A stretch of 14,535 bases of DNA. It comes from a virus. Its lineage: Duplodnaviria; Heunggongvirae; Uroviricota; Caudoviricetes. The position numbers and the translations under genes are program-made. Below are positions 79-14,535 of the stretch, piece by piece. The notes under the pieces are model-generated. The model saw nothing but the letters and a program-made list of their open reading frames with translations, did not search any database and was not told where the DNA came from. Where the stretch lies: IMG/VR virus record IMGVR_UViG_2534681705_000018, positions 1 through 14,535 of that record; one strand, 5' to 3'. Position 1 is the stretch's first letter. Each line of letters opens with the position of its first letter.

Positions 79-318
79 TTTTAACTCCTCTGGATAAATT
101 AAATCACAAATTTTTGTATTATAAATAACCGCATAAGCCAAATTATTTGAGATTAATAAAACATCACCAACTTCAATATCAACAAGACTTCTGTAACATG
201 TTTTACTAAATCCAATTACAAAATGAATGGACCAATATAATGATTTTTTGTCTAACACTGGAGCGTTTCCGTATTGGCAGACTGTGACTTTATCTAACCA
301 AAGATTCAATTCCCCTGT

Positions 319-684
319 TCATATTCTTATTAGTGGTTGAGCAGGGCTCAATACTCCATCAAATACTTTACCTACGTGCAAACGATTATATTTTAGTTCA
401 GGATGCTTTAGATTTAACGGGGAACTGGATAAACTGAGCCATTCCCCTATTAACCTTTCCGTTTCTGGCATTAAAGCCATCCCAGCGAGCTCAGATGAAA
501 TTAAGGGAAATATTTCTCCAAGCAATACCCATCCAGACCAGCTGCCACTCTCTTCTGCTATCGGTAACCATTTAGCACTAAATTCGGGCATTAATAATGC
601 AACATCTTCGCCATTTTCTTTCCAATTTTGAAAAGTGGTTTCAAACGTATGAGTGTTTCGATTTACTTTCCTCAGACCGAACAT
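319..684 (-). CDS. hypothetical 121-aa Trp-rich protein
   Basis: ORF-track ORF; ATG at 684 with AAGGA about 11 nt upstream; protein-like composition; no recognisable motif. Confidence 0.45.
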   Translation of the reverse strand: MFGLRKVNRNTHTFETTFQNWKENGEDVALLMPEFSAKWLPIAEESGSWSGWVLLGEIFPLISSELAGMALMPETERLIGEWLSLSSSPLNLKHPELKYNRLHVGKVFDGVLSPAQPLIRI

Positions 685-815
685 TAACTTTCATCCTTCT
701 GATCGTTTTCGAATTTGCTTTCATTTTCTTGCTCCTCATAAGGCTGATGTCGTTGTCCTTGTCGTTCATCTTGCTCAGTCAATACCCAACGTTGTGCTGT
801 AACTCATTATGAAAA

Positions 816-2426
816 CTATTTAATTCCCTCATCATTGATAAGGTTGGACATCTCTTTCAACATGAGAGTCATTGAAGCTTTCGACCAATTTAGCGGAATG
901 ATAGGGCTTGGCGCTTCATGCAAAGTTCCCGACTTGTGGATATAGTTATAGCTTTCGGGAAGTGCCATTTCAGGTACACTCCTGCCATTTGCACCAATCA
1001 TATTCTCGCCTGTTATTTGGGCCAATGATCTATTCATAAATTGCACTGAGTCATTCAAATACTCTTCCTTTCTTGATTCTTTATAAACAATTGCTGCTGA
1101 TTTTGCATACCATGAGTCAAAAAACCATTCTGCTTCTGTTGATGGAATGAAGCTCTTTTCTCTTTTCGCATGTGAATTTTGATCGGTATCGGTTTTAATA
1201 TCATTGAACCAAAAATTTGCCGACTGATAATTATCCTTCTCGTATCTTTTTATACCATACGGACCTGCTAGTTTTTTAACTATTTTTAGAACCTGCTCTT
1301 TTCTTCTGGTGTTTATCTTTGCAAGATTTGCAGGATAAATAACATTAAGTAAAGCCGCATCGGCTTCTCTGTAATGTTTATCTTTTTCCAGATAACCTGG
1401 GGATTCTCCCCCTAAATCAAGCTGTAACGTTATTCTTTCATAACCTTTATCTATGAGGTGGTTCAACCTCGTTGTTGAAAGAGGTTCATCCAGTTCATTG
1501 GCTTTAGCTTCGCGTAGTAAATCAGAGACAAAAACAGAGTCTTTCTTCGAGAGTAAGTTCGACAAACGTTCCAGTCCAGAGGTCACCAGTGCAACGGAAG
1601 ATGTGTTTAATCGGGCATCTTCTTCCCATGCTCCGGAATCTTCCATAACATAGAAATTGGCTTTATCCAGATAAGCAATCAGCAGCGCAACCGATTTTAA
1701 TCGGTCACCTTTTTGCCAATCTTCAGCGTTAATTGTATCAGTGTCGATTGCTTGTATAAGGAGATCAAGATAAAGACCTAACGCATCATTTTGTTTATGG
1801 TTCCACAGCTGCGGCTTGCCTTCTTCCTGCACATCTGCCATCACGGGGGAGTTGCTGTCAAATCGGATATGCACAACATTCATTTGCCCGGGAACTCCAT
1901 CCAGTCGTTTGGGGTTGCTAATGACGTCCTGCATTCGCTTAATCTGGTCGGGCGTAGACATATAATCCCACAGGGTGAGCAGAACCTTTTTTGCGGCTAC
2001 ACTATTTCCCTGATCTGATACTAATGCCATATAGCCCCATAAACTATCCCTCAGCCAGACAGCATCATAGTGGGTTTCTGCCGCTGTTTTGTCATCTTCG
2101 AAAGTAGAAGCAAGAATAAACGTTCCCCAGGGTTTCTCCGTCAACGTTAACTTTCGTGTGTTTTCTGTTAATGTTAGCAATCCTTGAATTTCGTCTTTGG
2201 TATAGTGGCTCTTTATTTCATTTTGTAATTTGGCTGAGTGAATCAAAAGACGATAATTAGGATACTTATCTGGATTTAACGATAAATAACTTTTATCTGT
2301 TGCTGCCCCCGTGGAATTAAGAATGTTAAATACAGATTCACTCGTCACTTCTGCCCCTGTCGCCTGGCATGTGCCGCACGAAAATATACCAGCGAGCAGA
2401 AGAGTTAATGCAGATTTCCCTTTCAT
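816..2426 (-). CDS. secreted glycoside hydrolase family 15 (glucoamylase-like) enzyme with N-terminal signal peptide
   Basis: ORF 816..2468; likely start at MKGKSALTLLLAGIFSCGTCQATG (ATG 2426; alternative ATG 2438). Matches recalled GH15 signatures: VWLRDSLWG (WxRDS), GKPQLWNHKQNDALG (GxPQ...D.AL) and SGAWEED (general-acid WEE). AT-rich gene unlike the rest of the window. Confidence 0.7.
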   Translation of the reverse strand: MKGKSALTLLLAGIFSCGTCQATGAEVTSESVFNILNSTGAATDKSYLSLNPDKYPNYRLLIHSAKLQNEIKSHYTKDEIQGLLTLTENTRKLTLTEKPWGTFILASTFEDDKTAAETHYDAVWLRDSLWGYMALVSDQGNSVAAKKVLLTLWDYMSTPDQIKRMQDVISNPKRLDGVPGQMNVVHIRFDSNSPVMADVQEEGKPQLWNHKQNDALGLYLDLLIQAIDTDTINAEDWQKGDRLKSVALLIAYLDKANFYVMEDSGAWEEDARLNTSSVALVTSGLERLSNLLSKKDSVFVSDLLREAKANELDEPLSTTRLNHLIDKGYERITLQLDLGGESPGYLEKDKHYREADAALLNVIYPANLAKINTRRKEQVLKIVKKLAGPYGIKRYEKDNYQSANFWFNDIKTDTDQNSHAKREKSFIPSTEAEWFFDSWYAKSAAIVYKESRKEEYLNDSVQFMNRSLAQITGENMIGANGRSVPEMALPESYNYIHKSGTLHEAPSPIIPLNWSKASMTLMLKEMSNLINDEGIK

Positions 2427-2734
2427 AAAATATTCCATCAATCGTTTGTTAAAAGCGTAGATAACCACTTATTTAACAACTTGAAAATAAGGTGTTTTAC
2501 CTGGGTTGTTACAAAAGGATTGCATTGCGTAAACGCTTTTTATTTACAACAAAATGGGGAAGTATTACGGCGATTGCGAAAAGTCTGAAGCGATTGAATT
2601 AAGATAATATAGAAAATCAGATACAGCAAAAATGGCAGATTGATCAGGTGAAGATAAATTGGAGCGGCGAAGGGAACAACACAACAAGCCACAAGACCAG
2701 TAATAAAGGCGCATTCGCGAGTTCTAAAATAAAT

Positions 2735-2758
2735 TCTATACACATTTCTATACACATT
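2735..2758. repeat. perfect tandem direct repeat TCTATACACATT x2
   Basis: Read directly at 2735-2746 and 2747-2758. Confidence 0.8.
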
Positions 2759-2770
2759 TATCACTCGCTT

Positions 2771-2850
2771 GGGGATTACACATCCCCTGTTAACCGTGAT
2801 CAAGCTGGTGGATGATCACGGATAAACCGATATGGGAATCCCCATATCGG
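2771..2850. promoter_or_regulatory. three consecutive perfect dyad symmetries: GGGGAT-N5-ATCCCC (2771-2787), CCGTGATCA-N10-TGATCACGG (2794-2821), CCGATATGGG-N4-CCCATATCGG (2827-2850)
   Basis: Inverted repeats read directly; non-coding; sits where composition changes from AT-rich cargo to element-like DNA. Confidence 0.6.
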
Positions 2851-2855
2851 CATCG

Positions 2856-2967
2856 CGTAGTTAATCGTAGTGGCTACCGTAGTAGCCTCCGTAGTTGAGT
2901 AGCAGGATGTAACCTGCCAGGAAGGAAATGATCGTGACTCGCCGTGACATGGCGTGATTAATCGTGA
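2856..2967. repeat. helically phased short direct repeats: CGTAGT x4 (2856, 2866, 2878, 2890) with embedded palindrome GGCTAC-cgta-GTAGCC, then CGTGA x4 at exact 10-bp spacing (2933, 2943, 2953, 2963)
   Basis: Read directly; the 10-12 bp phasing puts the motifs on one face of the helix, typical of multimeric protein-binding sites (integrase arm sites, TerS sites, iterons). Confidence 0.6.
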
Positions 2968-3000
2968 CACCAAACAAAAATCCTTACCCGTAGGCTTAAT

Positions 3001-3023
3001 GTAAGGCTTGGCTGTAGCCTTAC
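3001..3023. other. perfect 8-bp inverted repeat GTAAGGCT-N7-AGCCTTAC
   Basis: Read directly. Confidence 0.6.
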
Positions 3024-3035
3024 CGAACGCGCCGC

Positions 3036-3215
3036 TCACCGTCGCGGCCTGTCCGGTTTCCGCCACTGATACGGCCTCACATCATCATGCTGGTGGCGCT
3101 CCTGTTGCAGCACAACGGAAACAGGCGCTGAACACCTGTTAATTTTGCTTGCTGGTTGTTTGATTCCGGCAATGCTGCGGATCATCTCCAGCAAATCGGC
3201 TTCGGTGATGGTCAT
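3036..3215 (-). CDS. possible small ORF (59 aa, MTITEADLLEMIRSIAGIKQ...), unknown function
   Basis: ATG at 3215 with AAGGTG 7 nt upstream; stop at 3036-3038; not in the ORF track (under 60 aa); low support. Confidence 0.25.
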   Translation of the reverse strand: MTITEADLLEMIRSIAGIKQPASKINRCSAPVSVVLQQERHQHDDVRPYQWRKPDRPRR

Positions 3216-3245
3216 GATTTACACCTTAGGAAATCTTAGGGGGCT

Positions 3246-3518
3246 GGTTGACACTTTCCGGCTTAAGACCTTAATAAATCTTAATATCGTAGGTTGACAC
3301 ACTTGACACTTTTTCGGGAAAAACCTTAACAAAACTTAACCATCCCTGGCATTTCTAAGCATGGCAACTTGACACTTTTCGCTATTTTTTCGGCTTTTTG
3401 ACGTGGTAAATCTGGCGAAAGGCCAGTAATGGCGTGGCTTACAGCGAGGTTGACACTTTTTCGCGTTCAGAGTGTAAAGTGTCAACCTGGCAAGCTGCTC
3501 AACTTGACACTTTTTGAG
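3246..3518. repeat. array of six direct copies (one inverted) of about 14 bp, (G/C)TTGACACTTTT(T)CG
   Basis: TTGACAC at 3248, 3294, 3303, 3369, 3450, 3504 and inverted GTGTCAA at 3479; non-coding, directly 3' of the HTH gene at 3520-4047. Confidence 0.7.
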
Positions 3519-3519
3519 G

Positions 3520-4047
3520 TCATTGATGGCCTGATTTTTCCCACTCAGCCAGGGCGTTTAGTCCGGCTTCACTCCAGTTATCCAGCTCATCGGGACAATC
3601 ACCTGCAACATAGCAGAGCTCACAACGCAGCATACGAATTGCCAGCCTGGCATTTTCCCGAAAATCATACTGCTCAAAGTAATATTGCCCAGCATAATCC
3701 TCAAGGCAGATAGCACCATCATCAAGAAATTGCACTTCACAGCATAATTCCCCGGCTGCATCCTGCACACGCTGCTGTATGTCATCGTCCGTTACTGGTG
3801 CAGGGATTTTACCGTCTCTGGCCTTAACTGCTTTCCAGAACTCGCCCCACGTCATTTCCAGCGTTCTCTCTGGCCACATTTCAGAAACGGGGTTTTTTCC
3901 CTGTGCTGGTGGGCTGTTCCGCTGCTCTGTCGCTTCCACATCAATTTTTTTGCCAGACATGATCACTTCGCCTTTCTCGATCCAGTCGTAAACTGTCTGG
4001 CGGCTTACGCCTTTGTGTTTGGCATATTCTGCCTTGCTCATCAGCAT
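3520..4047 (-). CDS. HTH DNA-binding protein, 175 aa; N-terminus resembles lambda Nu1/terminase-small-subunit winged HTH; Cys-rich C-terminus; candidate packaging-redirecting or regulatory protein
   Basis: N-terminal KAEYAKHKGVSRQTVYDWIEKGE parallels recalled Nu1 KKQLADIFGASIRTIQNWQEQGMPV; C-terminal RCELCYVAGDC; ATG 4047 (or 4041) follows the upstream stop by 6 nt with GGGTGAG Shine-Dalgarno. Confidence 0.6.
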   Translation of the reverse strand: MLMSKAEYAKHKGVSRQTVYDWIEKGEVIMSGKKIDVEATEQRNSPPAQGKNPVSEMWPERTLEMTWGEFWKAVKARDGKIPAPVTDDDIQQRVQDAAGELCCEVQFLDDGAICLEDYAGQYYFEQYDFRENARLAIRMLRCELCYVAGDCPDELDNWSEAGLNALAEWEKSGHQ

Positions 4048-4053
4048 TATGAC

Positions 4054-4725
4054 TCACCCTTCTTTTTCCAGTTGAGCCAGCCGCCCGGATATTTCTTCCA
4101 GTTTTTCCAGGGCTGGCTTGCAGGCCGCATCAATAACATCCCGGACCATTCCGGCAAGCTGCTCTTCTGCTGTCGGCGTTGTTACTTCCACACCCGATGG
4201 TTTCCCTCCCTTATCCCATACACCCAGCGGTACGAGGGCAACGTGATCGATAAGAAATGGCGTACCCTCAATGACAAAATTGTCCTCGCCCATTACATCA
4301 GGAACTTCTGCCCCACCGGACGCACCACAAAACACAACCGACGGGCTGGTGGATACCTCCCCCCGGGCTTTCTGGATGTAATCGATGATTTCCTGCCCGT
4401 AAATCCGGCATACGCCCCACACCTCGTCATCGCGAATATACGGCAACATAACGGTGCCAATAATGCGCGACCGTTCGCCCACGTCTTCAATGGTTTTGCC
4501 TTCGGGATGGTCGATAATGACGGGTACTCCGGCGCAACGTTCCAGGAACTGCGGATTGAGATAAGTTTGCGGTGAACGCCAGACAAATTCTTTTTCTTCG
4601 GCGCGGTAGGCCATTCCGGTTCCTGTGATACGCAGGTTAACCAGCCACATGTTGGAGAACTGATAAGGCGACGGTAGCTGACCGTCCCGAATCTGCTTCG
4701 CCGCCTCAATTTCTGTTAAAAGCAT
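4054..4725 (-). CDS. hypothetical 223-aa protein with coiled-coil C-terminus
   Basis: ORF-track ORF; same operon and strand as neighbours; no motif recognised. Confidence 0.55.
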   Translation of the reverse strand: MLLTEIEAAKQIRDGQLPSPYQFSNMWLVNLRITGTGMAYRAEEKEFVWRSPQTYLNPQFLERCAGVPVIIDHPEGKTIEDVGERSRIIGTVMLPYIRDDEVWGVCRIYGQEIIDYIQKARGEVSTSPSVVFCGASGGAEVPDVMGEDNFVIEGTPFLIDHVALVPLGVWDKGGKPSGVEVTTPTAEEQLAGMVRDVIDAACKPALEKLEEISGRLAQLEKEG

Positions 4726-4789
4726 AATGTTATCCGGTTATAAGCAATAAGCCCCGCCAAATCCGGCAGGGCTGAACTCAGCACGTTTT

Positions 4790-5368
4790 TCATGCCCCCG
4801 CGAGGCTTGCAGTGTTAATTTTGACCAGGCGACGGGGAGGGATTTTGAAGGCGTTCAGCCAGACGTTCGGATCGCCCTGATATTCAGTAATACGACGACC
4901 AGCTTCATCCATTCTTACGGTTTTACCCAAATGGCCCGGCGTGTTTTCCACGGCCCACTGAGCACTTTCCTGAGCAGCCTTGTAAATCTGATCTTCCAGC
5001 ACCGCCAGCGTTGCAGAATCTGAAACGGAACGAATATCCACATCACTGAATTTTTTAGCCAGCTTCTGTGCGCCAATTAATGCACGCTTGCGGTAATCCA
5101 TCGACTTTTCACCAGCAAACGGGGCCGGAGCTCGACGGCCCATATTGCTGTATGCGGAATCCGCTTTAGCCTGGGCTTCTGCCAGTGAGGATTCATCTTC
5201 GACTGACGCGACGATGTTTTGATTAGCGTTATCCTCTTTTATGAAATCCTGTGCGGGGATCGCATTCAGAATTTCGATAATCTCCTGCGGAGTGCTGCCC
5301 TGCGACTCTGACAGAGCGTTAACCACCTCCATCAGTTTTAATCGCAAATCTTCTTTGCTTGCTGGCAT
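4790..5368 (-). CDS. hypothetical 192-aa protein
   Basis: ORF 4790..5377 opens on GTG; in-frame ATG at 5368 has a better Shine-Dalgarno (GAGAGGTGG). Confidence 0.55.
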   Translation of the reverse strand: MPASKEDLRLKLMEVVNALSESQGSTPQEIIEILNAIPAQDFIKEDNANQNIVASVEDESSLAEAQAKADSAYSNMGRRAPAPFAGEKSMDYRKRALIGAQKLAKKFSDVDIRSVSDSATLAVLEDQIYKAAQESAQWAVENTPGHLGKTVRMDEAGRRITEYQGDPNVWLNAFKIPPRRLVKINTASLAGA

Positions 5369-5407
5369 TTTTACCACCTCTCTTTTTTCACCAAAAAATC
5401 ACGACCA

Positions 5408-5587
5408 TCAGGCCGGACGTTCTACGGGATAAAGCGCCCGCTGCATTAAACGCCGGGCGACCTCATGAATGCTCGGAGCAATCCCCAGCGGAGAATTGCG
5501 GCGTTCCTCGTCCTGGATGCGCTGTAATGCTTCAATCTGATCACGAGCGAGTAAAACGGGTTTCACGCTGGCTTTTCTCATAGTCAT
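5408..5587 (-). CDS. small 59-aa protein (MTMRKASVKPVLLARDQIEALQRI...), possible small DNA-binding regulator
   Basis: ATG at 5587 with AGGAGA Shine-Dalgarno; first gene after the tandem terminators; assignment is tentative. Confidence 0.45.
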   Translation of the reverse strand: MTMRKASVKPVLLARDQIEALQRIQDEERRNSPLGIAPSIHEVARRLMQRALYPVERPA

Positions 5588-5605
5588 ATCTCCTGAACAA
5601 AACAA

Positions 5606-5700
5606 TGATTATGATTGCACAAACTGAAATGACGATCTACATCGTTGCAATTTATGAAACGATAACGCATGATGATCGCGTTCTTCCCATTGACTTCAAT
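5606..5700 (-). promoter_or_regulatory. promoter/operator region for the 5587->3520 operon with repeated ACGAT/ATCGT dyads and a CATAAT -10-like hexamer
   Basis: Between terminators and the first gene of the next operon; dyads GACGATctacATCGT and AACGC-N8-GCGTT read directly. Confidence 0.4.
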
Positions 5701-5704
5701 CACC

Positions 5705-5745
5705 TGAAAAACAAAGCCCGCAACACTTCTGGCTGCGGGCTTTTT
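5705..5745 (-). terminator. second, bidirectional intrinsic terminator
   Basis: 8-bp stem AGCCCGCA/TGCGGGCT (5715-5722, 5734-5741), 11-nt loop, T-runs on both sides. Confidence 0.6.
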
Positions 5746-5753
5746 ACTGGCAC

Positions 5754-5777
5754 AAAAAAGCCGGGAAAAATCCCGGC
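5754..5777 (-). terminator. Rho-independent terminator right after the PerC-like gene
   Basis: 7-bp GC stem GCCGGGA/TCCCGGC with 4-nt loop, followed on the minus strand by a 6-T run. Confidence 0.7.
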
Positions 5778-5782
5778 CTCCG

Positions 5783-6070
5783 TCACTGACTGCAATTTTT
5801 CGATCCAGGGTATTTCCTGAATGCCTTACCATTGGGCTGATGTAATCCCATCCCGGCATGTGCCCGGCTGATGGTTTCGCGCATCTCCCCGAAATTATCC
5901 TGCCGTGCTGGTGGGCGTGCTGCCTTGCGGATACATTCCGCGCGACGTTTTGCCGCCTGTTCCCGTGCCTTGTCATCATTCGCCAGCATGATGACCTCAG
6001 CCCACCGCGCCGCCGCTCTCCGGTACAGACCACGCGCTTCCAGTGCTTCCGCTTTGCTGTCGTGAATCAT
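5783..6070 (-). CDS. PerC/Pch-family transcriptional activator-like protein (95 aa)
   Basis: AEALEARGLYRRAAARWAEVIM matches the recalled PerC-family core (AEELE.KGLWRRAAARWLEVM); ATGA start/stop overlap with the upstream gene. Confidence 0.55.
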   Translation of the reverse strand: MIHDSKAEALEARGLYRRAAARWAEVIMLANDDKAREQAAKRRAECIRKAARPPARQDNFGEMRETISRAHAGMGLHQPNGKAFRKYPGSKNCSQ

Positions 6071-6609
6071 GCGCCTGTTTTCTCCCTGGCTGCCCGGCGC
6101 TGACGTTTGCGCTTCTCATTCAGCGCTACCAGCCGCGTTTCTGCGTCCTGTTGTTCCTGTGGTGTCACCTCGCCGCACGGCTGGCCTTTCAGGTCGTAGC
6201 GTACCCCACCAGCCATTAAGGCGCGGTAATAGCGCGGACACTGCGCATAAGATGCCAGCGTCGCACGTAATGCCCCTGGCCCGAATGCCAGCCCCCTGAC
6301 GGCGAGATCCTGCATCAGGTCGTCGAATATCCCCACCTTAAGCGGCTTCGGTGCTTCCCGGCTGAATAATTCAGGCCACAACTCAGTGAGGCGGTTAACG
6401 CGCCTGCGGTTTTTGCGCTGGCGCTTGGTCATATGCCGCCACGGTGTCGCCCCTGTGGGCTTCTGCTGCGCTTTCTGGTTACCGGGCATCACTTTATGCG
6501 CCGACGTGGTTTTATCCTGCTCCTGTGCCGCCTGCGTCGTTTTCTGCGGCGTGCCATAAATGCCTTTCGGTTTTCTGTTAATGGTCAGCTTAGTCATGCT
6601 TTGCCCCAT
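6067..6609 (-). CDS. ProQ/FinO-domain RNA-binding protein with a basic N-terminal extension
   Basis: LTELWPELFSREAPKPLKVGIFDDLMQDL ... YYRALMAGGVRYDLKGQPCGEVTPQEQQDAETRL parallels recalled ProQ N-terminal domain ([22 protein letters not shown] ... RVDLDGNPCGEL); likely true start ATG 6597. Confidence 0.65.
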   Translation of the reverse strand: MGQSMTKLTINRKPKGIYGTPQKTTQAAQEQDKTTSAHKVMPGNQKAQQKPTGATPWRHMTKRQRKNRRRVNRLTELWPELFSREAPKPLKVGIFDDLMQDLAVRGLAFGPGALRATLASYAQCPRYYRALMAGGVRYDLKGQPCGEVTPQEQQDAETRLVALNEKRKRQRRAAREKTGA

Positions 6610-6937
6610 CGTTTTTACTGATTATTTCATGCCCGGAACTTTCATCTACCGGATACCACGCAAATGATCCAGGTTCATCAGAAAGAATGAATTTTGTGTT
6701 TGGCAAATACATGCATTCGTAAAAACCATCTTCCTGATGATACGGTGCCATTCCATACTCACCAGTAAGAATCGGTAATATTTCAGAATAAATTTCTGAA
6801 TCACCAGAATAAAACACATCACAAATCGCCCATGCTGCAATCGGACTATACCAGTCGTTGCCATTATCATTCCTGAATTTTGCCCACCAACCCTGAACCG
6901 CTGGCGAAATATTTTTGGGTATAGCTTCAAGAAACAT
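6590..6937 (-). CDS. hypothetical 115-aa Trp/Tyr-rich protein, first gene of the ProQ/PerC operon
   Basis: ATG 6937 with strong AAGGGGG Shine-Dalgarno; 3' end overlaps ProQ-like start. Confidence 0.55.
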   Translation of the reverse strand: MFLEAIPKNISPAVQGWWAKFRNDNGNDWYSPIAAWAICDVFYSGDSEIYSEILPILTGEYGMAPYHQEDGFYECMYLPNTKFILSDEPGSFAWYPVDESSGHEIISKNDGAKHD

Positions 6938-6987
6938 ACAACCCCCTTTGCAACTCTATTTCTATAATTTCGTGATAAAAATTCCAA

Positions 6988-7290
6988 TTATTCACACTAT
7001 TCCATTTTGATTGTGAACAGTCGTGAATAGTTAGTGAACAGTTTTTTAATAACTGTTCACTATGTTTTTTAGTTTAAAATCATATGGTTATTTTGTTTCA
7101 GTGAACAGTTGAACAGTTACCCCCTATAGAATTTAATTTGCAGTGAAAATGATTCACTGTTACAAGTTACAATGCGTTTTAAAAGTTTTAGCCGAAACTG
7201 TTCACGGCGTTCATTTCGTCGATGAATCCAGTAATGACGCAGCTTTTAGAGGTGAACACTACTGTTCACCACTGTTCACCACTGTTCACT
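6988..7290. repeat. replication-origin-like iteron region: about 10 direct and inverted TGTTCAC(C) copies, an AT-rich spacer, and a perfect tandem ACTGTTCACC x3
   Basis: Direct copies at 7054, 7199, 7263, 7273, 7283; inverted at 7013, 7034, 7101, 7252; palindrome TAGTGAACAGTT/AACTGTTCACTA (7032-7062). TGTTCACC is the P4 alpha-protein type I iteron as I recall; location just 3' of the primase gene. Confidence 0.65.
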
Positions 7291-9058
7291 TTTCATGGAT
7301 TTTTGGCACAGCGGGTAACCATTCATTAGCACTGTCAGCCAGCTCCATGTTGTAGCGCATTCCGACATTGGTCTTTGCCTTCTTATACTCAGCCCCATAT
7401 TCTTTCATCACTTTTGGGAAATCTTTGCCAAAATTAGTTAGATTTAATGGCTTATCGAAACCATAAGCATCCATATATGCAAGATATGCATGGTAAAGAT
7501 AAATTCGAGGGGCTCTTGGATATATATTCAGGTTTCCCATGAACATTCCTACAGCTTCACCAAGTTCGACAATATGGTTACAAAAAGCATATAGCGGATC
7601 AGTATGGCGTTTTACTTCCATTGCTTCTTCACCATCACGTTGCTCGAGCAGTAATGTTCTTGCTTTTTCGGGATCTGAAAAATTTACCAACAGCCTACGG
7701 ACTATTACCGGAATTTCCGCTGCAATTTTTTTGGGTAAACATGTGTCCTTGTTTTCTTCCGCTATCGGATTATTGAACTGAAAAATAACCCTACGGCGTG
7801 AAATACCTCCCGCTCTTTCTGTAAAAACCATCGGTTTATTATTTGTTATCAAAACAACTGAGCGTAAGACAGTGGTGTATCTTTTTTCATATTTCGGGTT
7901 AATTTGCAGAGGATCCCCACCTGTTATAGCTTTAATACCATTACCTTCACCAAAATATTTAGGTTGGTCCGGTAAAATAATCAGACTTTTACCAACTAGT
8001 TGCTCACGTCCACCAGCATCATCTAACGCTTTCATATCACTGCCTGCGGTGTTCTGCTCACCCGCCAACATTCTGGCAATTTGAGTAAACATACTTTTAC
8101 CACTTCCACCTTCGCCAGTTGCTTCAATGAATAATTGCCAGTCGTAGCGATTAGCCAAAACCATAAACAGAGCAGCACATATCCGCTTCATCTTTGATGA
8201 ATCGTATCCTGCTGCATGTGACAGCCAACGATGAAAATGGGGCGCATGGTCATGAATATTTTCACCAGGCGCAGGTGGCGTATAATAAATTCCATTATGC
8301 GAAGTGATCCAGTGCTCTGGTGAATGAGGTAAAAATCTACCACTTGTTATGTCATAAACTCCATTTTCAAAAGGTATTATGGTGTCACTCTGTTCTCTCA
8401 TTACGGGTACAGATATTTTTAAAGCATCAACCGCATTACTAATTGCCCGCTTACTGAAATTTGTCTTGTTTTTTTCGTAAATTGATACCATTTTACGACT
8501 CAACTCCATATCAGATATTTTTTCCCACACTCCAGAACAGTATGCATAAGCAAAATTGTTACCAGGGTGAACAGCTATTTCCTCAAAGCATTCAGCCAAA
8601 AGTGAAGCTCGCTCGTTATCCGCCATTCTGGAAAGAGAGATTTTGTGTTTTTTCTCAGTCCTTCCTGACAGAATATCCCCGCGCTCTGCCTGTTCGCGGA
8701 TCCGTTGCAGGTAATCGCGCCAGTTCTCCGGTTCCCGGTCGGTGATGCCTTTGTATAATTTCGCCTCCTGTACGCCAGCCAGCGCCAGCTTTTCAGCGAT
8801 AGCATTGATCTGGATTGGTTCGATCTCCCCCGCGAGATAGACACGCGCAAAGCGGCGTTTCTCGTCAATAATGCGGATATTCGCCAGGTCTGCCAGTTGC
8901 TTTGGCCCCAGGTAAACAGGTGGTACGTTATCGCCGTGTTTTCGTCCTTCGCTTTCAATCCAGTGTTGAGCATGGGAGTAAGCGTCCGTCCCGGCAAAAA
9001 TGATTACCTCGGTGAATTTATCCTTCGGCTGATATTTTAAATTCGGTGCGTTTTTCAC
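7286..9058 (-). CDS. P4-family primase / D5-like SF3 helicase replication protein (590 aa)
   Basis: Walker A GEGGSGKS in mid-protein; overall organisation of phage/plasmid primase family; GTG start at 9058 overlaps upstream stop (GTGA). Confidence 0.8.
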   Translation of the reverse strand: MKNAPNLKYQPKDKFTEVIIFAGTDAYSHAQHWIESEGRKHGDNVPPVYLGPKQLADLANIRIIDEKRRFARVYLAGEIEPIQINAIAEKLALAGVQEAKLYKGITDREPENWRDYLQRIREQAERGDILSGRTEKKHKISLSRMADNERASLLAECFEEIAVHPGNNFAYAYCSGVWEKISDMELSRKMVSIYEKNKTNFSKRAISNAVDALKISVPVMREQSDTIIPFENGVYDITSGRFLPHSPEHWITSHNGIYYTPPAPGENIHDHAPHFHRWLSHAAGYDSSKMKRICAALFMVLANRYDWQLFIEATGEGGSGKSMFTQIARMLAGEQNTAGSDMKALDDAGGREQLVGKSLIILPDQPKYFGEGNGIKAITGGDPLQINPKYEKRYTTVLRSVVLITNNKPMVFTERAGGISRRRVIFQFNNPIAEENKDTCLPKKIAAEIPVIVRRLLVNFSDPEKARTLLLEQRDGEEAMEVKRHTDPLYAFCNHIVELGEAVGMFMGNLNIYPRAPRIYLYHAYLAYMDAYGFDKPLNLTNFGKDFPKVMKEYGAEYKKAKTNVGMRYNMELADSANEWLPAVPKIHEK

Positions 9059-9345
9059 TTCTTACCTCCCGCAACCAACATTGCCCGGATTTTTTTAATA
9101 TTCGTGGCTGCACGTCTCGCCACCGCCTGTTGTTTGTTTTCCACCAGAATAAAATCACGCTCAAACTGACGGCGCGGCATTACGCAGTCATATTCGTAAG
9201 CCTCACGGCGGTAGGTGATATTGCCTGGCGTAACGTGACGAATAACCACTCGTCCCCCACGTCTGGTGTCGCGGTAAATATCTCCGTGTCTGATTTCAGG
9301 CCGAGCGGGGCCGCTGGCAGTAAAGCCAGAATTTTTCTTTTTCAT
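9055..9345 (-). CDS. hypothetical 96-aa basic protein, coupled to the primase gene
   Basis: ATG 9345 with AGGAAA upstream; stop overlaps primase start. Confidence 0.5.
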   Translation of the reverse strand: MKKKNSGFTASGPARPEIRHGDIYRDTRRGGRVVIRHVTPGNITYRREAYEYDCVMPRRQFERDFILVENKQQAVARRAATNIKKIRAMLVAGGKK

Positions 9346-9349
9346 GGTT

Positions 9350-9550
9350 TTATTTTCCTGTCAGCAGTTCCGGTTTTATTTCCGCACGAATACAGAGTTC
9401 AGAAAAAAATTCAGGAGAACCAACAATCTCATTACTTTTCAGTCGGCATTGTGATTTCACTTTTCCTTTATCCAGGTAAACCAGTATGCGTCCGGTGAAA
9501 TCATCTGGCGCACTCAGGGTAATTGTCATTGTTGCTTGCTGATTATCCAT
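9350..9550 (-). CDS. small 66-aa protein with one copy of an FTGxxLVxxxxGxV motif; paralog of the gene at 9543-9908
   Basis: PDDFTGRILVYLDKGKV; start overlaps upstream stop by 8 nt. Confidence 0.5.
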   Translation of the reverse strand: MDNQQATMTITLSAPDDFTGRILVYLDKGKVKSQCRLKSNEIVGSPEFFSELCIRAEIKPELLTGK

Positions 9551-9908
9551 GATTCACCCCCTGAATAACCTGATAACCGCAACTGGTCAGCAATTCGATA
9601 AATTCCGGCAATGTGCCGAAACAGTAATCATCACGCAGACGTTCGCGGGATACTTCAACGCCGTTTTCGTAGTGACTCACCATGCGTCCGGTAAAATGCA
9701 GATCATCATCGTGATGGCACGTTAACGGCTTAATCAGTCGCGCACGTTCTGCCAGTTCCAGCAATGCTTCAACGCTTCCGGCAATTGCACCATCCGGCAG
9801 GTTGTAATTACGCACTATGCGCCCGTTCTCCACATGGACCAGTAGCTGCCCGGTAAATTTCTCGTCAAACTGAATGCGGTTAAGGTCGGTAAGTGACAGG
9901 TTAATCAT
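9543..9908 (-). CDS. 121-aa protein carrying two tandem copies of the same small domain
   Basis: FDEKFTGQLLVHVENGRIV and LHFTGRMVSHYENGVEV; ATG 9908 overlaps upstream stop. Confidence 0.55.
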   Translation of the reverse strand: MINLSLTDLNRIQFDEKFTGQLLVHVENGRIVRNYNLPDGAIAGSVEALLELAERARLIKPLTCHHDDDLHFTGRMVSHYENGVEVSRERLRDDYCFGTLPEFIELLTSCGYQVIQGVNHG

Positions 9909-10104
9909 GGCGTACCTCCTGACGAATACGGGCGGCGAATACCATCACGCAGCCATCAGGAGATTGCTGGCGTGCTTCCTGTTCGCTGGTGGCCTCGATG
10001 TGAATCACGCGCGGTTGTGCCGTGCTCAGAGCGATAAAACGCCAGATGTATTTATTCAGGTTGTGCGAGTCCCGCCCTTGCGGGTGTGTGGTATGATTTC
10101 TCAT
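9901..10104 (-). CDS. small 67-aa protein, first gene of the leftward operon; tentatively Icd/Kil-like
   Basis: ATG 10104 with GAGGT Shine-Dalgarno; IWRFIALSTAQ...VMVFAARIRQEV resembles my recollection of Icd-like proteins (unverified); in frame with the C-terminus of the 402-aa track ORF. Confidence 0.4.
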   Translation of the reverse strand: MRNHTTHPQGRDSHNLNKYIWRFIALSTAQPRVIHIEATSEQEARQQSPDGCVMVFAARIRQEVRHD

Positions 10105-10297
10105 AGCTACCTCGATAATCTTGCTATCGTTGGTGGTTAGAAGCTCTGCGAGTGGTAACGACACTTGCGGGGCTTTGCCTTTAAGGTGCAAGTCACCTTT
10201 GAGGGTTATGCTACTTTTAGGTGACTTGCACTTCAAGCCTTTTTTTATTTTTTTTTCTACGTATACTGAACGCCACCTAACAGTAAGGAGGCCAGTA
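10105..10297. promoter_or_regulatory. divergent promoter/operator region with 13-bp inverted repeat AGGTGCAAGTCACCT (10184-10198) / AGGTGACTTGCAC (10219-10231) and a T-rich tract (10241-10257)
   Basis: Read directly; lies between the leftward operon and a rightward gene with AAGGAGG Shine-Dalgarno; candidate -35/-10 (TTGAAG-N17-TAGCAT) on the minus strand overlaps the repeat. Confidence 0.55.
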
Positions 10298-10477
10298 ATG
10301 CCAACGGGTACAACCAACAACAAATCACAACAAAAAACGGCTAGAATCCCTCTAGAAGTTTTAAGCGAAATGAATTTGGTCAAAGAGGAAAACGAAACAG
10401 ACGCGCAGTTTATCGTTACAGCCATGCGTGGCGAGATCAAACGCCGCCAGCGCCGCAAGGCCAAAGAACAGGAGTAA
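10298..10477 (+). CDS. small 59-aa basic protein, possibly ribbon-helix-helix-like; candidate element repressor
   Basis: Near-consensus Shine-Dalgarno AAGGAGG 6 nt before ATG 10298; strand-helix-helix pattern (ARIPLEV / LSEMNLVKEEN / AQFIVTAMRGEIKRR); only clear plus-strand gene in the element. Confidence 0.5.
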   Translation: MPTGTTNNKSQQKTARIPLEVLSEMNLVKEENETDAQFIVTAMRGEIKRRQRRKAKEQE

Positions 10478-10534
10478 CCATCACCAGCGCCGTGGTGTGA
10501 GGAACTACGGTGCATCGTTTTACAGGGCAGCGCC

Positions 10535-10714
10535 ATGACCAACAAAGAATCAACCAAAACACCATCACCAACTCGTAAGAGACGACGCAAAAATATAGCG
10601 CATGAACATGAATCAGAAAGATTCGCACCTTGTTCGTTTGCTCTTGAGAAATTCCTTAAAGAGCACAGGAAAAAGCTCTCGTTGCAAACCTTGGAACGAA
10701 CCAAATCTGACTGA
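10535..10714 (+). CDS. possible 59-aa Lys/Arg-rich ORF downstream of the RHH-like gene
   Basis: ATG 10535, weak Shine-Dalgarno; followed by a plus-strand terminator; not in ORF track. Confidence 0.3.
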   Translation: MTNKESTKTPSPTRKRRRKNIAHEHESERFAPCSFALEKFLKEHRKKLSLQTLERTKSD

Positions 10715-11109
10715 TCACATTGCCCACCAGCCGCAAATGTGGCATTGTTGGTGATGCGTTCAAGTATGTAGCTTTTCCACTGGCGGCTCTCTGCGGTCGC
10801 CTTTGTTTTATCCAGAACGAAATCAGACATCAGATTGATCAGCACCTGGCGACCTGACAAAATCGCATCAGTCGCGCCACCAGCAAAATTTTTTGCTTTC
10901 CGGACAGCGTGGCCAACGATATTTTGCAGCAAAATATTCTGCATTTCTGGCGTGCTGTGGCGACGGTGATCAGCGCCTTCACATTGAACGAACTTGTCGC
11001 TAAAATTCACCCACATAGCAAACATCGCGGTGCTGTAGGTAATTCGTTCACAAAGGCGCTCCGGCAACGGGGCGCTTTCTCTTTTTGTAACGGTCAGAGC
11101 GTTACACAT
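10715..11109 (-). CDS. N-terminal part of the 402-aa track ORF (9901..11109); plausible gene of unknown function whose true 3' end is unresolved
   Basis: ATG 11109 overlaps the AntA stop (ATGTGTAA); first ~130 residues protein-like, but the middle of the 402-aa frame looks non-coding and is antisense to the plus-strand module. Confidence 0.3.
10782..10809 (+). terminator. candidate Rho-independent terminator for the rightward transcript
   Basis: GGCGGC-tctctgc-GGTCGCC stem-loop followed by TTTGTTTT. Confidence 0.4.
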
Positions 11110-11950
11110 GGCTGTTTTCCTCCATGCGACGGGCTAACCAACGCTGCGAAAGACGAATTAATTCAGCCTTCCGCTGGTGGTAGTCCTGGCCTAACTCAAT
11201 CAGCGTGATATTGCTCTGCTCAAGGTAAGAAAGGTGCTCAAGCTGCAACGTGCTCATGTGGTCGCGTGGTTCGCCTGTAATGCCGTTCGCCAGTGCCCAC
11301 TGTTTTGCAGTCATGCCACCCAGCACGATACGCGCCAGCATGTTCGCTTCCGTGGTGTAGTGGTGCTGGAGTGTGTTTTTACCCAGTTCAGCCCGGTACG
11401 CCTCCAGCGCGGCACACATTGGCTTAAAGTAGCTGGCAACTGTGATACGGGCTTTCAGTTCCCGGCGTAACGCTGCGGAACGCACTGGCGCTACCTTGTG
11501 TAGCTCCTCCTCGCATTTGATAAAGTACTGGCGAACGGCGCGGCCCTGTTCGGTACGTTCGACCATCGCCAGTTCTTTCGCCATGTTCGTGGAGATCAAA
11601 TAGTCTTCACTGCGACGATCACCGCCGCGCTTTGTTGTCCAATCAAAATCAAACTGTTCAATATTTACACTTTGGTTCCCCCGTTTCGGGGAATCAAAGT
11701 ACAAATTTTCTACAACTTCAAAATCCACGCCATTTTTAAATCCGTACTCATCAATACGTCCTTTAATCCAGGTAGTGAAATCACGGCCTACCCCGAGCGC
11801 CTTATGCAACGCTCTGGCGCTAACAATATTGGTTTCACGCCCGCCAATAACGCCGGAAATAACCGGGATAATTTCGCCAAAATTTTGCAGATTCTGGTTT
11901 TCAGGCCGAACGAAGCCCTGCCCCTGTACGGGCGTTTTTCGCAGTTTCAT
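11102..11950 (-). CDS. phage antirepressor, AntA/AntB-type N-terminal domain (282 aa)
   Basis: IPVISGVIGGRETNIVSARALHKALGVGRDFTTWIKGRIDEYGF matches recalled AntA domain pattern; AGGAG Shine-Dalgarno before ATG 11950. Confidence 0.7.
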   Translation of the reverse strand: MKLRKTPVQGQGFVRPENQNLQNFGEIIPVISGVIGGRETNIVSARALHKALGVGRDFTTWIKGRIDEYGFKNGVDFEVVENLYFDSPKRGNQSVNIEQFDFDWTTKRGGDRRSEDYLISTNMAKELAMVERTEQGRAVRQYFIKCEEELHKVAPVRSAALRRELKARITVASYFKPMCAALEAYRAELGKNTLQHHYTTEANMLARIVLGGMTAKQWALANGITGEPRDHMSTLQLEHLSYLEQSNITLIELGQDYHQRKAELIRLSQRWLARRMEENSHV

Positions 11951-12028
11951 AAAAACTCCTGCTATCGAATTAAGTTACTTTTATTTGCTGGTGGATAGCT
12001 GGGGGCTTCTGGCCCCGTAGCCATTTAA

Positions 12029-12226
12029 TCAGGTAGCTGTTCCGCGTGATTCAGCAATACGCTGATTAATCCACTCGTCAATTTCACTCTCAACGAAAGC
12101 AATCGCTCGCGAGCCAATTTTAACTGATGCAGGAAATTTACCTTGCCCCATAAGGCGATAAATCCATGCCTTGCTATATCCAGTTCTACGCTGAACTTCC
12201 GTTAAACGAATAAGCGTATTTGACAT
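12029..12226 (-). CDS. alpA: AlpA/Vis-family phage transcriptional regulator or excisionase-like HTH protein (65 aa)
   Basis: IRLTEVQRRTGYSKAWIYRLMGQGKFPASVKIGSRAIAFVESEIDEWI is the typical AlpA-family winged HTH; GAGGT Shine-Dalgarno; family-level assignment only. Confidence 0.8.
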   Translation of the reverse strand: MSNTLIRLTEVQRRTGYSKAWIYRLMGQGKFPASVKIGSRAIAFVESEIDEWINQRIAESRGTAT

Positions 12227-12294
12227 ATATTTACCTCATAACGTCTACTCAATTTGACGAGGTAATCATGGCACAGAAATAACGAATATTTTCA

Positions 12295-12444
12295 TACCCT
12301 CAGGCCTAATGGTAATCGGGAATATTTTTACCCTAAGGGTAATAGTAAAATTGATGGGAAAGCATACAAAAATACCCTAAGGGTGAGGTCTGATTACCCT
12401 TAGGGTGAGACGCGAACAAAACATGAGATACCACTAGGGTAAGG
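12295..12444. promoter_or_regulatory. array of five copies of palindromic motif TACCCT(A/T)AGGGT(A/G) immediately upstream of alpA
   Basis: Copies at 12295 (degenerate), 12328-12343, 12373-12385, 12394-12410, 12429-12444; each an inverted repeat TTACCC-N3-GGGTAA. Confidence 0.7.
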
Positions 12445-12446
12445 CT

Positions 12447-13193
12447 TCATCGTTTGATAGGACAGGCGACAAGCTCAATAGATGCGGCCTGTCGGGAGGT
12501 AAAACCTCGTTTTTCAAGCTCAGTAGTAATCGCGCCCTGGTTTCCCCTGGTGGCGCGCTCATTTTCCGGATCGTAATTGGCCCACTCTCTGTTTCTAATC
12601 TCGATAGCCAGATACAATGGGTCATCATCTCTGTATTTATTTAATAGAATTGGACGTTCGCTTTCGAGTTTGCGGATTTGCTCTTTAAGTGAAGAAATTT
12701 CCGCAAGTAACACTTCAATATTCTGTTCATCATCCAGAAACTCATTATCAACCACATCAGAAGTTGGTAGAGTTATTTCACTTAATGGTAAAAATAAATC
12801 AATGCCTATTTTCTCTGCAAATTCTTTAAGTTCTGCACGACGAAACCCATGCTTATCAAAAAGGCTTGCCGACCATCTTACATCACAATTTTGAAAAGGT
12901 GCGAATAATGCTATAGGCACACTATTTCTTTCACGAATAACTTCCAGGAGGTCTGTTAAAGTAGGGGCACTATTATATTGATTGGAAAGATCGACATATG
13001 TTGATTCAATAGTACCGGCAATACCTTGCTTAACCCATTCAGGAAGTTCAATCGCACATTCTTTCAAGTAAAGAAAATCTGCAATCTGTGAATAACTAAC
13101 ATGCGGTTGATGTAATTGAATACGAGTTATCAACTCCCTCAGGCTAATAAACTCCCACTCCCTTGCTTTAAGCACTTCGGCAATATCAATCAT
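12447..13193 (-). CDS. hypothetical 248-aa protein between integrase and alpA, coiled-coil near C-terminus
   Basis: Track ORF 12447..13274 opens on GTG; ATG 13193 has GAGGTG Shine-Dalgarno 7 nt upstream; no motif recognised. Confidence 0.55.
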   Translation of the reverse strand: MIDIAEVLKAREWEFISLRELITRIQLHQPHVSYSQIADFLYLKECAIELPEWVKQGIAGTIESTYVDLSNQYNSAPTLTDLLEVIRERNSVPIALFAPFQNCDVRWSASLFDKHGFRRAELKEFAEKIGIDLFLPLSEITLPTSDVVDNEFLDDEQNIEVLLAEISSLKEQIRKLESERPILLNKYRDDDPLYLAIEIRNREWANYDPENERATRGNQGAITTELEKRGFTSRQAASIELVACPIKR

Positions 13194-13320
13194 ACGCACA
13201 CCTCGGCGTCCTCTGTAGTGGTGGCTGTGCCAGCCCGCAGAGGTGTACGGGTTTTCAGGAGCGACCCTAGACACAGCCTTTTCTTAATCGCTCAAAGTCT
13301 ACTACTGTATACTCAACCAG

Positions 13321-14535
13321 TCACCCGCATTTTCCGAACTCACCATGCACCACATTTCCGCCATGCTCGAGCGAATCCATATAGTCGGCATACCACTGGA
13401 GCATCTCCCGGCGACCATCCAGATATTGCGCATGGTTGTATGTGCCACGAATTGAGTTTTTATCGACGTGTGCGAGCTGTGTCTCTATCCACGCGGTGTT
13501 ATAGCCCTGCTCATGCAAAATGGTGCTCATGGTGTGCCGGAATCCATGACCAGTAACGCGCCCGGCATAGCCGATACGACGAATGAGCACATTCATCGCC
13601 ATTTCACTCATTGGCTTACTGTGGTGAATACGACCGGGGAAAATAAACTGATACTGGCCTGTCATGTTTTTTAACTGCTCCAGTATTTTTATCGCCTGTT
13701 CTGGTAATGGCACACAATGCGGACGGCGCATCTTCATTCGTTCTTTAGGCACTTCCCACAAACGATTATCAAAATCGATCTCCAGCCATTCTGCCTGCCG
13801 TAATTCCCCGGGTCTGACACCTGTCAGAATTAATAGCCGCATTGCCAGTTTGACGATCTGGCTTCCGGTGTACGTATTAAAAACGCGGAAAAATTCCGGC
13901 AGTTCGTCGGCTTTCAAATAGGCGTAATGCTCTTTTTTATGTGGAGCAAATGCGCTCACCAGGTCAGGGGCTGGATTATATTCGGCGCGTCCGGTGATGA
14001 TTGCGTACCGGAACACCTCGCCGCATCGCTGGCGAACCTTACGCAATTTTTCAGTCGCACCACGGTCATTAAGACGGGAAAGAACCGCCAGCAATTCCAT
14101 CGGCTTAATTTCTGCGATCGGCCTACCGCCAATGTACGGAAAAACATCTTTTTCAAACGTCTCGATCATTTCCTCGGCGTATGACGATGACCACCTGTCG
14201 ATCCGCTTTTCGTACCATTCGCGAGCAATACCCTCAAAAGTATTGCCAAATTTGCTCGCCTGTTCTCGCTTTTGGGCTTTTCTGGCCTCACTTGGATTTA
14301 TACCACCAGCAAGAAGCCTTTTAGCCTCATCCCTTGCCGCCCTGGCATCAGACAGAGACACATCAGGGTATACCCCCAACGACAACATTTTGGGCTTTCC
14401 TGCAAACCTGTAGCGCAGTCGCCACCCTTTCGAACCGTTCGGCTCAATGAGCAACGAAAGCCCGTTACCGTCATTGAGTGTATAAGCCTTTTCTTTCGGC
14501 TTCGCGCGCCTGATGGCAAGGTCTGAAAGCAGCAT
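13321..14535 (-). CDS. int: P4-type tyrosine integrase (site-specific recombinase), 404 aa, start at or just beyond the right edge
   Basis: N-terminal arm-binding-like region (LSDLAIRRAKPKEKAYTLNDGNGLSLLIEPNGSKGWRLRYRF); C-terminal catalytic boxes HGFRHT and RGTYNHAQY (tyrosine nucleophile). Confidence 0.9.
   Translation of the reverse strand: MLLSDLAIRRAKPKEKAYTLNDGNGLSLLIEPNGSKGWRLRYRFAGKPKMLSLGVYPDVSLSDARAARDEAKRLLAGGINPSEARKAQKREQASKFGNTFEGIAREWYEKRIDRWSSSYAEEMIETFEKDVFPYIGGRPIAEIKPMELLAVLSRLNDRGATEKLRKVRQRCGEVFRYAIITGRAEYNPAPDLVSAFAPHKKEHYAYLKADELPEFFRVFNTYTGSQIVKLAMRLLILTGVRPGELRQAEWLEIDFDNRLWEVPKERMKMRRPHCVPLPEQAIKILEQLKNMTGQYQFIFPGRIHHSKPMSEMAMNVLIRRIGYAGRVTGHGFRHTMSTILHEQGYNTAWIETQLAHVDKNSIRGTYNHAQYLDGRREMLQWYADYMDSLEHGGNVVHGEFGKCG

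Follow-up and report, generated by a model that had tools for sequence, protein, structure and literature searches.

The locus considered here raises the question of what two small genes, lying between an Icd-like gene and a primase gene on an E. coli phage satellite, do for the element that carries them. It was analyzed within a stretch of 14,535 nt (positions 1 to 14,535 of IMG/VR virus record IMGVR_UViG_2534681705_000018; hereafter the window), and the two gene products, of 121 and 66 amino acids (aa), are called P121 and P66. Their counterparts are labelled "hypothetical protein" in every homologous record examined. Sequence and profile comparisons showed that both proteins belong to the FsoA/GfoA/Rem family of small prophage antirepressors. 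We propose, with a probability of roughly 0.6, that they act as such antirepressors on a satellite of the phage-inducible chromosomal island (PICI) type, where they would relieve repression of resident or helper prophages. As judged from sequence, the new element here is a tandem, partly fused array of FsoA/GfoA/Rem-type domains in a PICI slot resembling that of the epsilon gene of phage P4.

Three copies of one domain in two overlapping genes

P121 and P66 carry a repeat domain with an FTGxxLVxxxNG core, referred to below as the FTG domain and, for the proteins that contain it, the FTG family. They are the second and third of five genes read from the minus strand in the order Icd-like, P121, P66, DUF4222, primase:

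9901-10104, minus strand: Icd-like small protein, 67 aa, first gene of the cluster (NCBIfam NF033153 phage_ICD_like, E 3.8e-20)
9543-9908, minus strand: P121, 121 aa, two tandem FTG domains (phrog_340, BLASTP, family hidden Markov model)
9350-9550, minus strand: P66, 66 aa, single FTG domain (BLASTP, phrog_340)
9055-9345, minus strand: DUF4222 protein, 96 aa (Pfam PF13973, E 1.4e-19)
7286-9058, minus strand: P4/D5-type primase-helicase, 590 aa (Pfam D5_N, DUF5906, Pox_D5)

The stop of the Icd-like gene overlaps the P121 start by 8 nt (ATGATTAA), the P121 stop overlaps the P66 start by 8 nt (ATGGATAA), and the DUF4222 stop overlaps the primase start by 4 nt (GTGA); the primase begins with a GTG codon and has a GGAGG ribosome-binding site upstream. 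Between P66 and DUF4222 there is a 4-nt gap and no overlap. An earlier note on this DNA had described four overlapping small genes ahead of the primase; the four tightly packed genes are borne out by the sequence and by RefSeq calls, and the word "overlapping" fails at the P66/DUF4222 junction alone. In an E. coli locus of 95% identity RefSeq calls the same five genes, the two middle ones as "hypothetical protein". Such overlapping or nearly abutting stops and starts fit a predicted translational coupling of the genes.

BLASTP aligned P66 with P121 twice (E 3e-8 with 41% identity over 44 aa, and E 2e-5) and the two halves of P121 with each other (E 1e-6). The repeats proposed in the earlier note, three copies of a domain of about 45-50 aa split 2+1 over two genes, are therefore significantly similar in alignment. 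The family hidden Markov model (HMM) found exactly three domains, at 9729-9878 (P121 domain 1), 9552-9698 (P121 domain 2) and 9356-9550 (P66). Within PHROGs, matches were restricted to phrog_340 (P121, E 4.6e-29 in two stretches; P66, E 1.6e-16) and phrog_2512, both of unknown function. At the DNA level, the trace of the repeats is confined to a 37-nt stretch encoding the FTG...NG core, present in three copies of 68-70% identity. The ratio of nonsynonymous to synonymous substitution rates (dN/dS) against E. coli and Salmonella orthologues was about 0.4, based on small counts, which fits the value expected of real, fast-evolving coding genes.

P121 and P66 gave no match in the copies of Pfam, NCBIfam and PADLOC that were scanned. 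Rem itself was also unmatched in the same Pfam copy, so that the PF27490 "Rem" model, which is part of newer Pfam releases, is apparently not in that copy. Searches of PDB sequences, with single sequences and with a profile, returned noise alone (designed armadillo repeats and RNF4), and close enterobacterial "hypothetical proteins" were the sole matches in word-indexed protein searches.

Relationship to the prophage antirepressors FsoA, GfoA and Rem

Where the look-up of the repeats in Pfam and NCBIfam failed, the family was found by HMMER, by hhalign and by BLASTP to FsoA, and it proved to be one of prophage antirepressors and not a structural family with a housekeeping role, which the earlier note had named as one outcome that would speak against it. 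HMMER was run exhaustively against 1.84 billion cluster representatives with a profile of the three window repeats and close single-domain homologues and yielded 96 clusters at E <= 1e-3, mostly proteins of 60-90 aa; a minority of these clusters are long, repeat-rich proteins matched in multiple stretches and possibly spurious. The consensus of the FTG family reads ...L-x-V-x-P-x-FTGRV-L-V-x-V-E-N-G-x-V-x-S-x(3)-L-x-D-D-E-H-I-A-T-L-x-x-F-L-E-L-A-x-x-A-G-Y-x-V. The same profile retrieved the FsoA-like proteins P0136 and P0137 at about E 1e-7. A precomputed PF27490 "Rem" tag was found on the homologues P0024 and P0107, where it is marked "faint", and on P0022 and P0201, where it bears no strength mark, and this tag pointed to Rem of E. 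coli K-12 (b1561, Qin prophage). The family profile aligned with Rem residues 38-80 at an hhalign probability of 94% (E 1.2e-7).

With a family member as query, tblastn matched the open reading frame (ORF) STM0898.2n of Fels-1, inside the left-operon interval where fsoA was mapped. The translation of this ORF begins with MNSQQMM and ends with EAGIRFEEISNVG, and the primers le154 and le162 of the fsoA construct (Table S1) encode MNSQQMM... and ...EAGIRFEEISNVG (PMC3121763). As the primers match both ends, STM0898.2n is FsoA. FsoA aligned with P66 at a BLASTP E-value of 2e-8 and with each half of P121 at 4e-7, while its comparison with the profile of window repeats and close homologues reached 97.7% in hhalign (E 2e-12). 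The gfoA primer sequence was absent from the searched viral contigs, and we therefore compared the GfoA-like gp49 of mEp237 instead of GfoA itself. This protein is encoded beside dinI, matches the gfoA primer at its C-terminus and aligned with the family profile at 96.7% (E 4e-10).

Functions are established for the characterized members. FsoA of Salmonella phage Fels-1, GfoA of Gifsy-1 and GftA of Gifsy-2 bind repressors and thereby detach them from DNA, the active form being probably an A2B2 complex. Their targets are the non-cleavable repressors of the Gifsy prophages, with cross-reaction against those of heteroimmune phages (Lemire, Figueroa-Bossi and Bossi 2011, PMC3121763); the Gifsy antirepressors also include GfhA. 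Rem, found through iterated searches begun from Salmonella GfoA and FsoA, is an experimentally shown antirepressor of DicA, which derepresses dicBp 165-fold and causes DicB/DicF-dependent filamentation (Ragunathan et al. 2023, PMC10448788). The window proteins share with FsoA, GfoA and Rem a domain of about 50 aa, its core (F/Y)(T/S)G-x(6)-(E/D/K)-x-G followed by L-x(2-3)-(D/E), and an F-x-E-L-A-x-x-A-G-like helix after the core. All are small, acidic proteins encoded by mobile elements and made from an early or induction-linked operon. They differ in that the domain occurs here three times, in two genes with overlapping stop and start; P66 (66 aa) fits the size of the single-domain antirepressors (about 65-85 aa), whereas P121 is a two-domain fusion. 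The carrier is a phage satellite and not a prophage, with an Icd-like ORF before the genes, DUF4222 and primase genes after them, and no adjoining phage CI gene. Whereas gfoA and gftA are controlled by LexA and fsoA lies in an early-left operon, the window genes sit in a satellite operon with no LexA box in its upstream region. Single-domain FsoA-like members are found, as is fsoA, in the early-left operon of Fels-1-like prophages with S24-type CI repressors.

Several natural fusions of the FTG domain were seen: with Bro-N (P0134) and with AntA (P0051), both antirepressor-type modules, and with a DnaG-type CHC2 zinc finger (P0170). Another protein, P0175 (240 aa), has an FTG domain at each end and a helical middle. 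The literature searched contained no account of the FTG family in satellites and no description of these satellite genes as antirepressors, a weak negative covering open-access papers only.

The AlphaFold model of P66, based on 95 diverse homologues, had a mean predicted local distance difference test score (pLDDT) of 86.7 and showed a beta-hairpin over the FTG...NG core, then a helix. For P121, where the alignment was shallow, the model was of low quality (pLDDT 46). No resembling fold was found when the P66 model was compared with solved structures and viral predicted structures, so that the structure neither supports nor contradicts the antirepressor assignment.

Age of the triplication and reshuffling

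The earlier note attributed the three copies to local duplication. Results of pairwise comparisons indicate instead that the triplication is old and not a recent local event. The three window copies share only 35-41% identity with one another, and each stands about as far from FsoA of Fels-1. In normalized pairwise scoring, P121 domain 1 has its nearest distant relatives in the first domains of P0107 and P0109, and P121 domain 2 has its nearest in the second domain of P0109. P66 falls into another, separate set of proteins, 65-66 aa long (P0110, P0114-P0118), and both members of this set whose context was checked lie before DUF4222 in other islands. As each copy has its own orthologues elsewhere, the duplication within P121 and the split of the P66 lineage are old.

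Reshuffling is the recent part. E. coli genomes hold in-frame collapse products with junctions in or near the conserved core: P0048, of 67 aa, is the N-terminus of domain 1 joined to domain 2 at the FTG motif, and further products have 83, 87 and 91 aa. Such natural hybrids show that the FTG units are modular.

The FTG slot in other satellites

Genomic context was sampled from contigs encoding family homologues, and loci are given below by their numbers (L001 etc.). In all satellite loci examined that reach past the FTG gene, DUF4222 is the next gene (adjacency seen in L001, L004, L005, L018 and L020-L023), and a replicase of the D5 primase, AAA_25 RepA or DUF927 kind comes after it, either immediately or, in L023, after two small ORFs. 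The number of FTG domains differs by island: one in L020-L022, two in L004/L005, L017 and L018, and three in the window, L001 and L023. Two-domain relatives in other satellites are P0107, P0109 and P0111; tblastn found the two-domain form in no deposited phage genome. In L023 the interval from alpA to the primase is filled with classical antirepressor families (AntA, Bro-N, Rha and Ash).

A megablast search with P66 and P121 DNA gave matches in 375 of 5,426 complete E. coli genomes (about 7%), where the cassette always lies on the chromosome, in as many as four copies; many of the matches are partial or contain insertions. Close dicA homologues are present in 851 of the 5,426 genomes.

EcCICFT073, the model PICI of Gram-negative bacteria (Fillol-Salom et al. 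2018, PMC6092414), shares with the window int, AlpA, the divergent YlcI/YnfO gene, the Icd-like gene, small genes, DUF4222, primase and PerC, the Icd-like gene and the DUF4222-primase pair being nearly identical. The difference lies in the slot, where EcCICFT073 (L025, CFT073, NC_004431, 10853-12245) has four unrelated helical proteins of 73-77 aa. These unrelated occupants indicate that the interval from Icd to DUF4222 is a variable mosaic cassette slot. In two database ORF calls, P0004 and P0068, FTG domains run into homologues of the EcCICFT073 helical proteins.

The replicases of these islands have a part in common. Residues 1-125 of the window primase (window 8684-9058) are shared with other replicases (phmmer E 1e-49 to 1e-64) and recur at L004 687-1061, L018 6691-7080 and L022 5501-5881, in genes that directly follow DUF4222 in each case. 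The C-terminal engines behind this shared N-terminus differ, being AAA_25/RepA-type in L004 and L005 and DUF927 in L022; the L018 product ends at the contig end and had no Pfam look-up. The window primase itself scored 101.3 bits (E 4.4e-29) against TIGR01613, the P4-family primase, under the cut-off of 108.7 bits.

In L020 (1348-10201), a member of the P66 subfamily lies in an island whose flanks carry major-capsid (Phage_cap_E) genes, one truncated and one full, and head-decoration genes. This layout resembles that of the helper-embedded PICIs (PMC10111431).

Proposed function

According to the reading that we prefer, P121 and P66 are FsoA/GfoA/Rem-family antirepressors that derepress prophages on behalf of the satellite. 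AlpA activates the genes of the PICI EcCICFT073 in response to a helper phage (PMC6092414), and the window operon would presumably depend on AlpA and helper likewise (inferred from PMC6092414). In the model PICI, switching on this early operon requires both AlpA and a helper phage; from then on, the domains would be made together with the replicase. Each domain would then bind the dimeric CI-like repressor that a lambdoid prophage, resident or incoming, produces, and would remove it from its operators, the likeliest targets being the short, non-cleavable repressors of the DicA/GfoR/GtgR class. The helper would thus be derepressed, and its capsids and packaging functions would become available through an induction that is independent of SOS. 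A possible side effect would be derepression of division inhibitors of cryptic prophages, such as dicBF. One may speculate that three diverged domains widen the range of repressors, and hence of helpers, and that the fused P121 is a covalent mimic of the dimer in which single-domain proteins appear to act.

A bolder version, which we put forward tentatively and hold to be possible but not probable, is that the PICI itself induces phages. In that case the three domains would form a polyvalent battery that derepresses several heteroimmune lambdoid prophages with DicA/GfoR-type repressors and creates the satellite's own helpers, while domain number and alleles would be shuffled by recombination in the core to track local repressors. 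The island would then be a counterpart, in the lambdoid world, of P4 with its epsilon.

Several points weigh against an antirepressor role. There is no known target repressor: the window covers 14.5 kb, and the resident prophages of the strain lie outside its view. Antirepressor activity is known for single-domain members alone, which are 23-37% identical to the window domains, and GftA of Gifsy-2, although in the same register, is at the limit of what the family profile detects (hhalign 12.9%, E 2e-3). The predicted structure lends no independent support, and the upstream region of the operon has no LexA box, unlike those of gfoA and gftA. EcCICFT073 has no FTG-family gene, so the function would be accessory and not core. 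Finally, the constant linkage to DUF4222 and replicase in satellites and the fusion of P0170 to a DnaG-type zinc finger could point to a role linked to replication.

If P121 and P66 are indeed antirepressors, several consequences follow. The prevailing view of Gram-negative PICIs is that they passively await a helper phage; this group of islands would be able to trigger or amplify induction of resident prophages. The E. coli prophages affected would include carriers of virulence genes and cryptic prophages encoding the division inhibitors DicB and DicF, and the "bacteriophage crosstalk" idea of Lemire et al. would extend to satellites. Moreover, phrog_340 would gain a functional label, and the islands would offer a natural system for studying antirepressor specificity, with a 50-aa module in one, two or three copies and in hybrids.

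Alternative explanations

One alternative is a replication-accessory role, in which the proteins serve, for example, as adaptors bringing host or helper proteins to the primase-helicase and their likeness to antirepressors reflects a generic small protein-binding fold. The satellite loci examined, with DUF4222 and then a replicase after the FTG gene, agree with this, as do starts and stops that overlap or nearly abut up to the primase and the zinc-finger fusion of P0170. However, the prophage members are remote from replication genes, lying in the early-left operon or beside dinI, the family is also fused to the antirepressor-type modules Bro-N (P0134) and AntA (P0051), and EcCICFT073 replicates without FTG proteins. 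We consider such a role unlikely.

The domains might also act on the satellite's own control, by binding the YlcI/YnfO-like protein or whatever occupies the inverted repeat at 10181-10236, and thus form a positive feedback that locks the replicative state. The operon is directly preceded by a divergent promoter region that contains an 18-nt inverted repeat and a third half-site, the divergent arrangement of the ylcI-like and Icd-like genes is kept in EcCICFT073, and Gram-negative PICIs have no known master repressor (PMC6092414). Yet EcCICFT073 has the same control region and no FTG-family gene, indicating that the circuit works without FTG proteins. All characterized relatives hit Xre/CI-type phage repressors and not small proteins resembling ribbon-helix-helix (RHH) regulators, and the variation from one to three domains between otherwise similar islands agrees better with targets that vary outside the island than with a single fixed target inside it. 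The chance that the domains serve the satellite's own circuit appears small.

The earlier note had suggested host-takeover or anti-helper factors. As anti-helper factors, the proteins would bind a regulator of the helper, such as a Cro-, CII- or late-activator-like protein, and cut helper reproduction to the satellite's advantage. Interference genes are common in satellites, and the moderately high dN/dS (about 0.4) and the mosaic slot both fit an arms-race gene. Nevertheless, the interference and packaging genes of PICIs lie downstream of the replicase and not upstream (PMC6092414), no family member is known to inhibit a phage, and the known activity of the family is induction. Three experimentally shown antirepressors in the family favor prophage derepression, a pro-induction role, over interference with the helper, and we regard anti-helper activity as quite improbable. 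Of the earlier interpretation, the layout, the repeats, the Icd-like gene and the satellite context thus stood, while the readings as a local duplication and as anti-helper factors called for correction.

That the similarity of the repeats is due to chance, or that the ORFs are not real genes, as their small size and the lack of a match in the Pfam and NCBIfam copies might suggest, is refuted by the significant pairwise E-values, the approximately 96 clusters matched at E <= 1e-3 among 1.84 billion proteins, the retention of the genes in 375 of 5,426 complete E. coli genomes, a dN/dS below 1 and the confident model of P66 (pLDDT 86.7).

Comparison with the immunity regions of P4 and P1

The derepression that we propose for P121 and P66 has a precedent in epsilon of phage P4, which inactivates the C repressor of P2. 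P4 uses P2-type helpers, and PICIs of the present type use lambdoid ones (PMC6092414). In both elements the gene in question encodes a small early-operon protein of a satellite between an immunity or Icd-like ORF and the primase, and its proposed job is derepression of a helper prophage. The P4 ORF directly upstream of epsilon is Icd-like (NF033153, E 7.7e-21) and overlaps epsilon by 8 nt, with the primase downstream, just as the Icd-like gene of the window overlaps P121 by 8 nt. The two differ in that P4 has a single gene and the window a domain array. Epsilon was rejected as a distant relative of the FTG domain (hhalign probability 0.06%), as was Tum of phage 186 (0.6%), and, as to the Ash proteins of P4-like elements, P121 and P66 gave no match to Pfam Phage_ASH. 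We infer that the FTG genes may be a non-orthologous occupant of an epsilon-type functional slot.

In the immI operon of phage P1, consisting of the c4 antisense RNA, icd and ant, the end of icd overlaps the start of ant, so that synthesis of the antirepressor requires translation of icd. The window resembles this arrangement in that an ORF of the Icd family overlaps a downstream gene of an antirepressor family, here by 8 nt. It differs in that the downstream antirepressor appears to be of another family and no C4-like RNA was detected upstream: Rfam gave no match to a C4/CI-type RNA at the gathering threshold across the window, nor at E <= 1 in 10000-12400.

The Icd-like assignment of the first gene, tentative in the earlier note, is well founded, with 71.7 bits against a cut-off of 25 for NF033153 and with homologues annotated in RefSeq as "host cell division inhibitor Icd-like protein". 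The protein also matches phrog_6196 (E 1e-44), whose label "transcriptional repressor" may be inherited from an old P4 annotation. In P4 (L019, NC_001609), the ORF at 8168-8584 carries the annotation "cI gene product / transcriptional repressor" and has an Icd-like C-terminus.

Carrier element and control region

Outside the cluster, the following features were located in the window:

10105-10297: divergent intergenic control region of 193 bp, between the Icd-like operon and the ylcI/ynfO-like gene
10298-10477, plus strand, divergent: YlcI/YnfO-family small protein (RefSeq label of the homologue in L001 and EcCICFT073; no Pfam match)
11102-11950, minus strand: AntA/AntB-type antirepressor-family protein, 282 aa (Pfam PF08346 AntA, E 8.8e-24)
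12029-12226, minus strand: AlpA-family regulator (Pfam PF05930, E 2.4e-19)
12447-13274: ORF for a 275-aa protein, between integrase and AlpA
13210-13277, minus strand: int-alpA RNA motif (Rfam RF02996, 47 bits; gathering score 35.8)
13321-14535, minus strand: tyrosine integrase, its ORF reaching the window edge (Pfam Phage_integrase, Arm-DNA-bind_3)

Further genes encode ProQ/FinO, PerC and a DUF2213 protein. On its gene content (int, AlpA, AntA, Icd-like, primase, ProQ, PerC) and its synteny with EcCICFT073, the element is classed as a PICI-type satellite. It has int, alpA and pri(-rep) in the conserved order, is small and contains no lysis or tail genes. The satellite context assumed in the earlier note is thus upheld, int, AlpA, primase and PerC following an EcCICFT073-like order. 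The homologous island in L001, a complete genome, adjoins tRNA-Gly.

The control region contains an 18-nt inverted repeat (10181-10198 / 10219-10236; 89% complementary, 20-nt spacer) and a third related half-site at 10267-10285. On the plus strand, the hairpin of the inverted repeat is followed by a T-run. No Rfam family matched the control region, and the repeats could be an operator set or an RNA element.

Some observations concern other parts of the window. The int-alpA RNA motif overlaps the start of the 275-aa ORF in the integrase-AlpA interval. Downstream of PerC, on the minus strand, lie genes for the DUF2213 protein (4054-4725; RefSeq "peptidase M41 family protein") and for a 175-aa protein (3520-4047) with a weak N-terminal match to HTH_17; both are candidate components of a packaging-redirection module in PICIs of this type. 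A stretch of about 620 bp (10478-11101), from the ylcI-like gene to antA, is free of a convincing gene. Its counterpart in L001 measures about 270 bp (10479-10745), a difference of roughly 350 bp, and AntA of L001 has 266 aa compared with 282 aa in the window.

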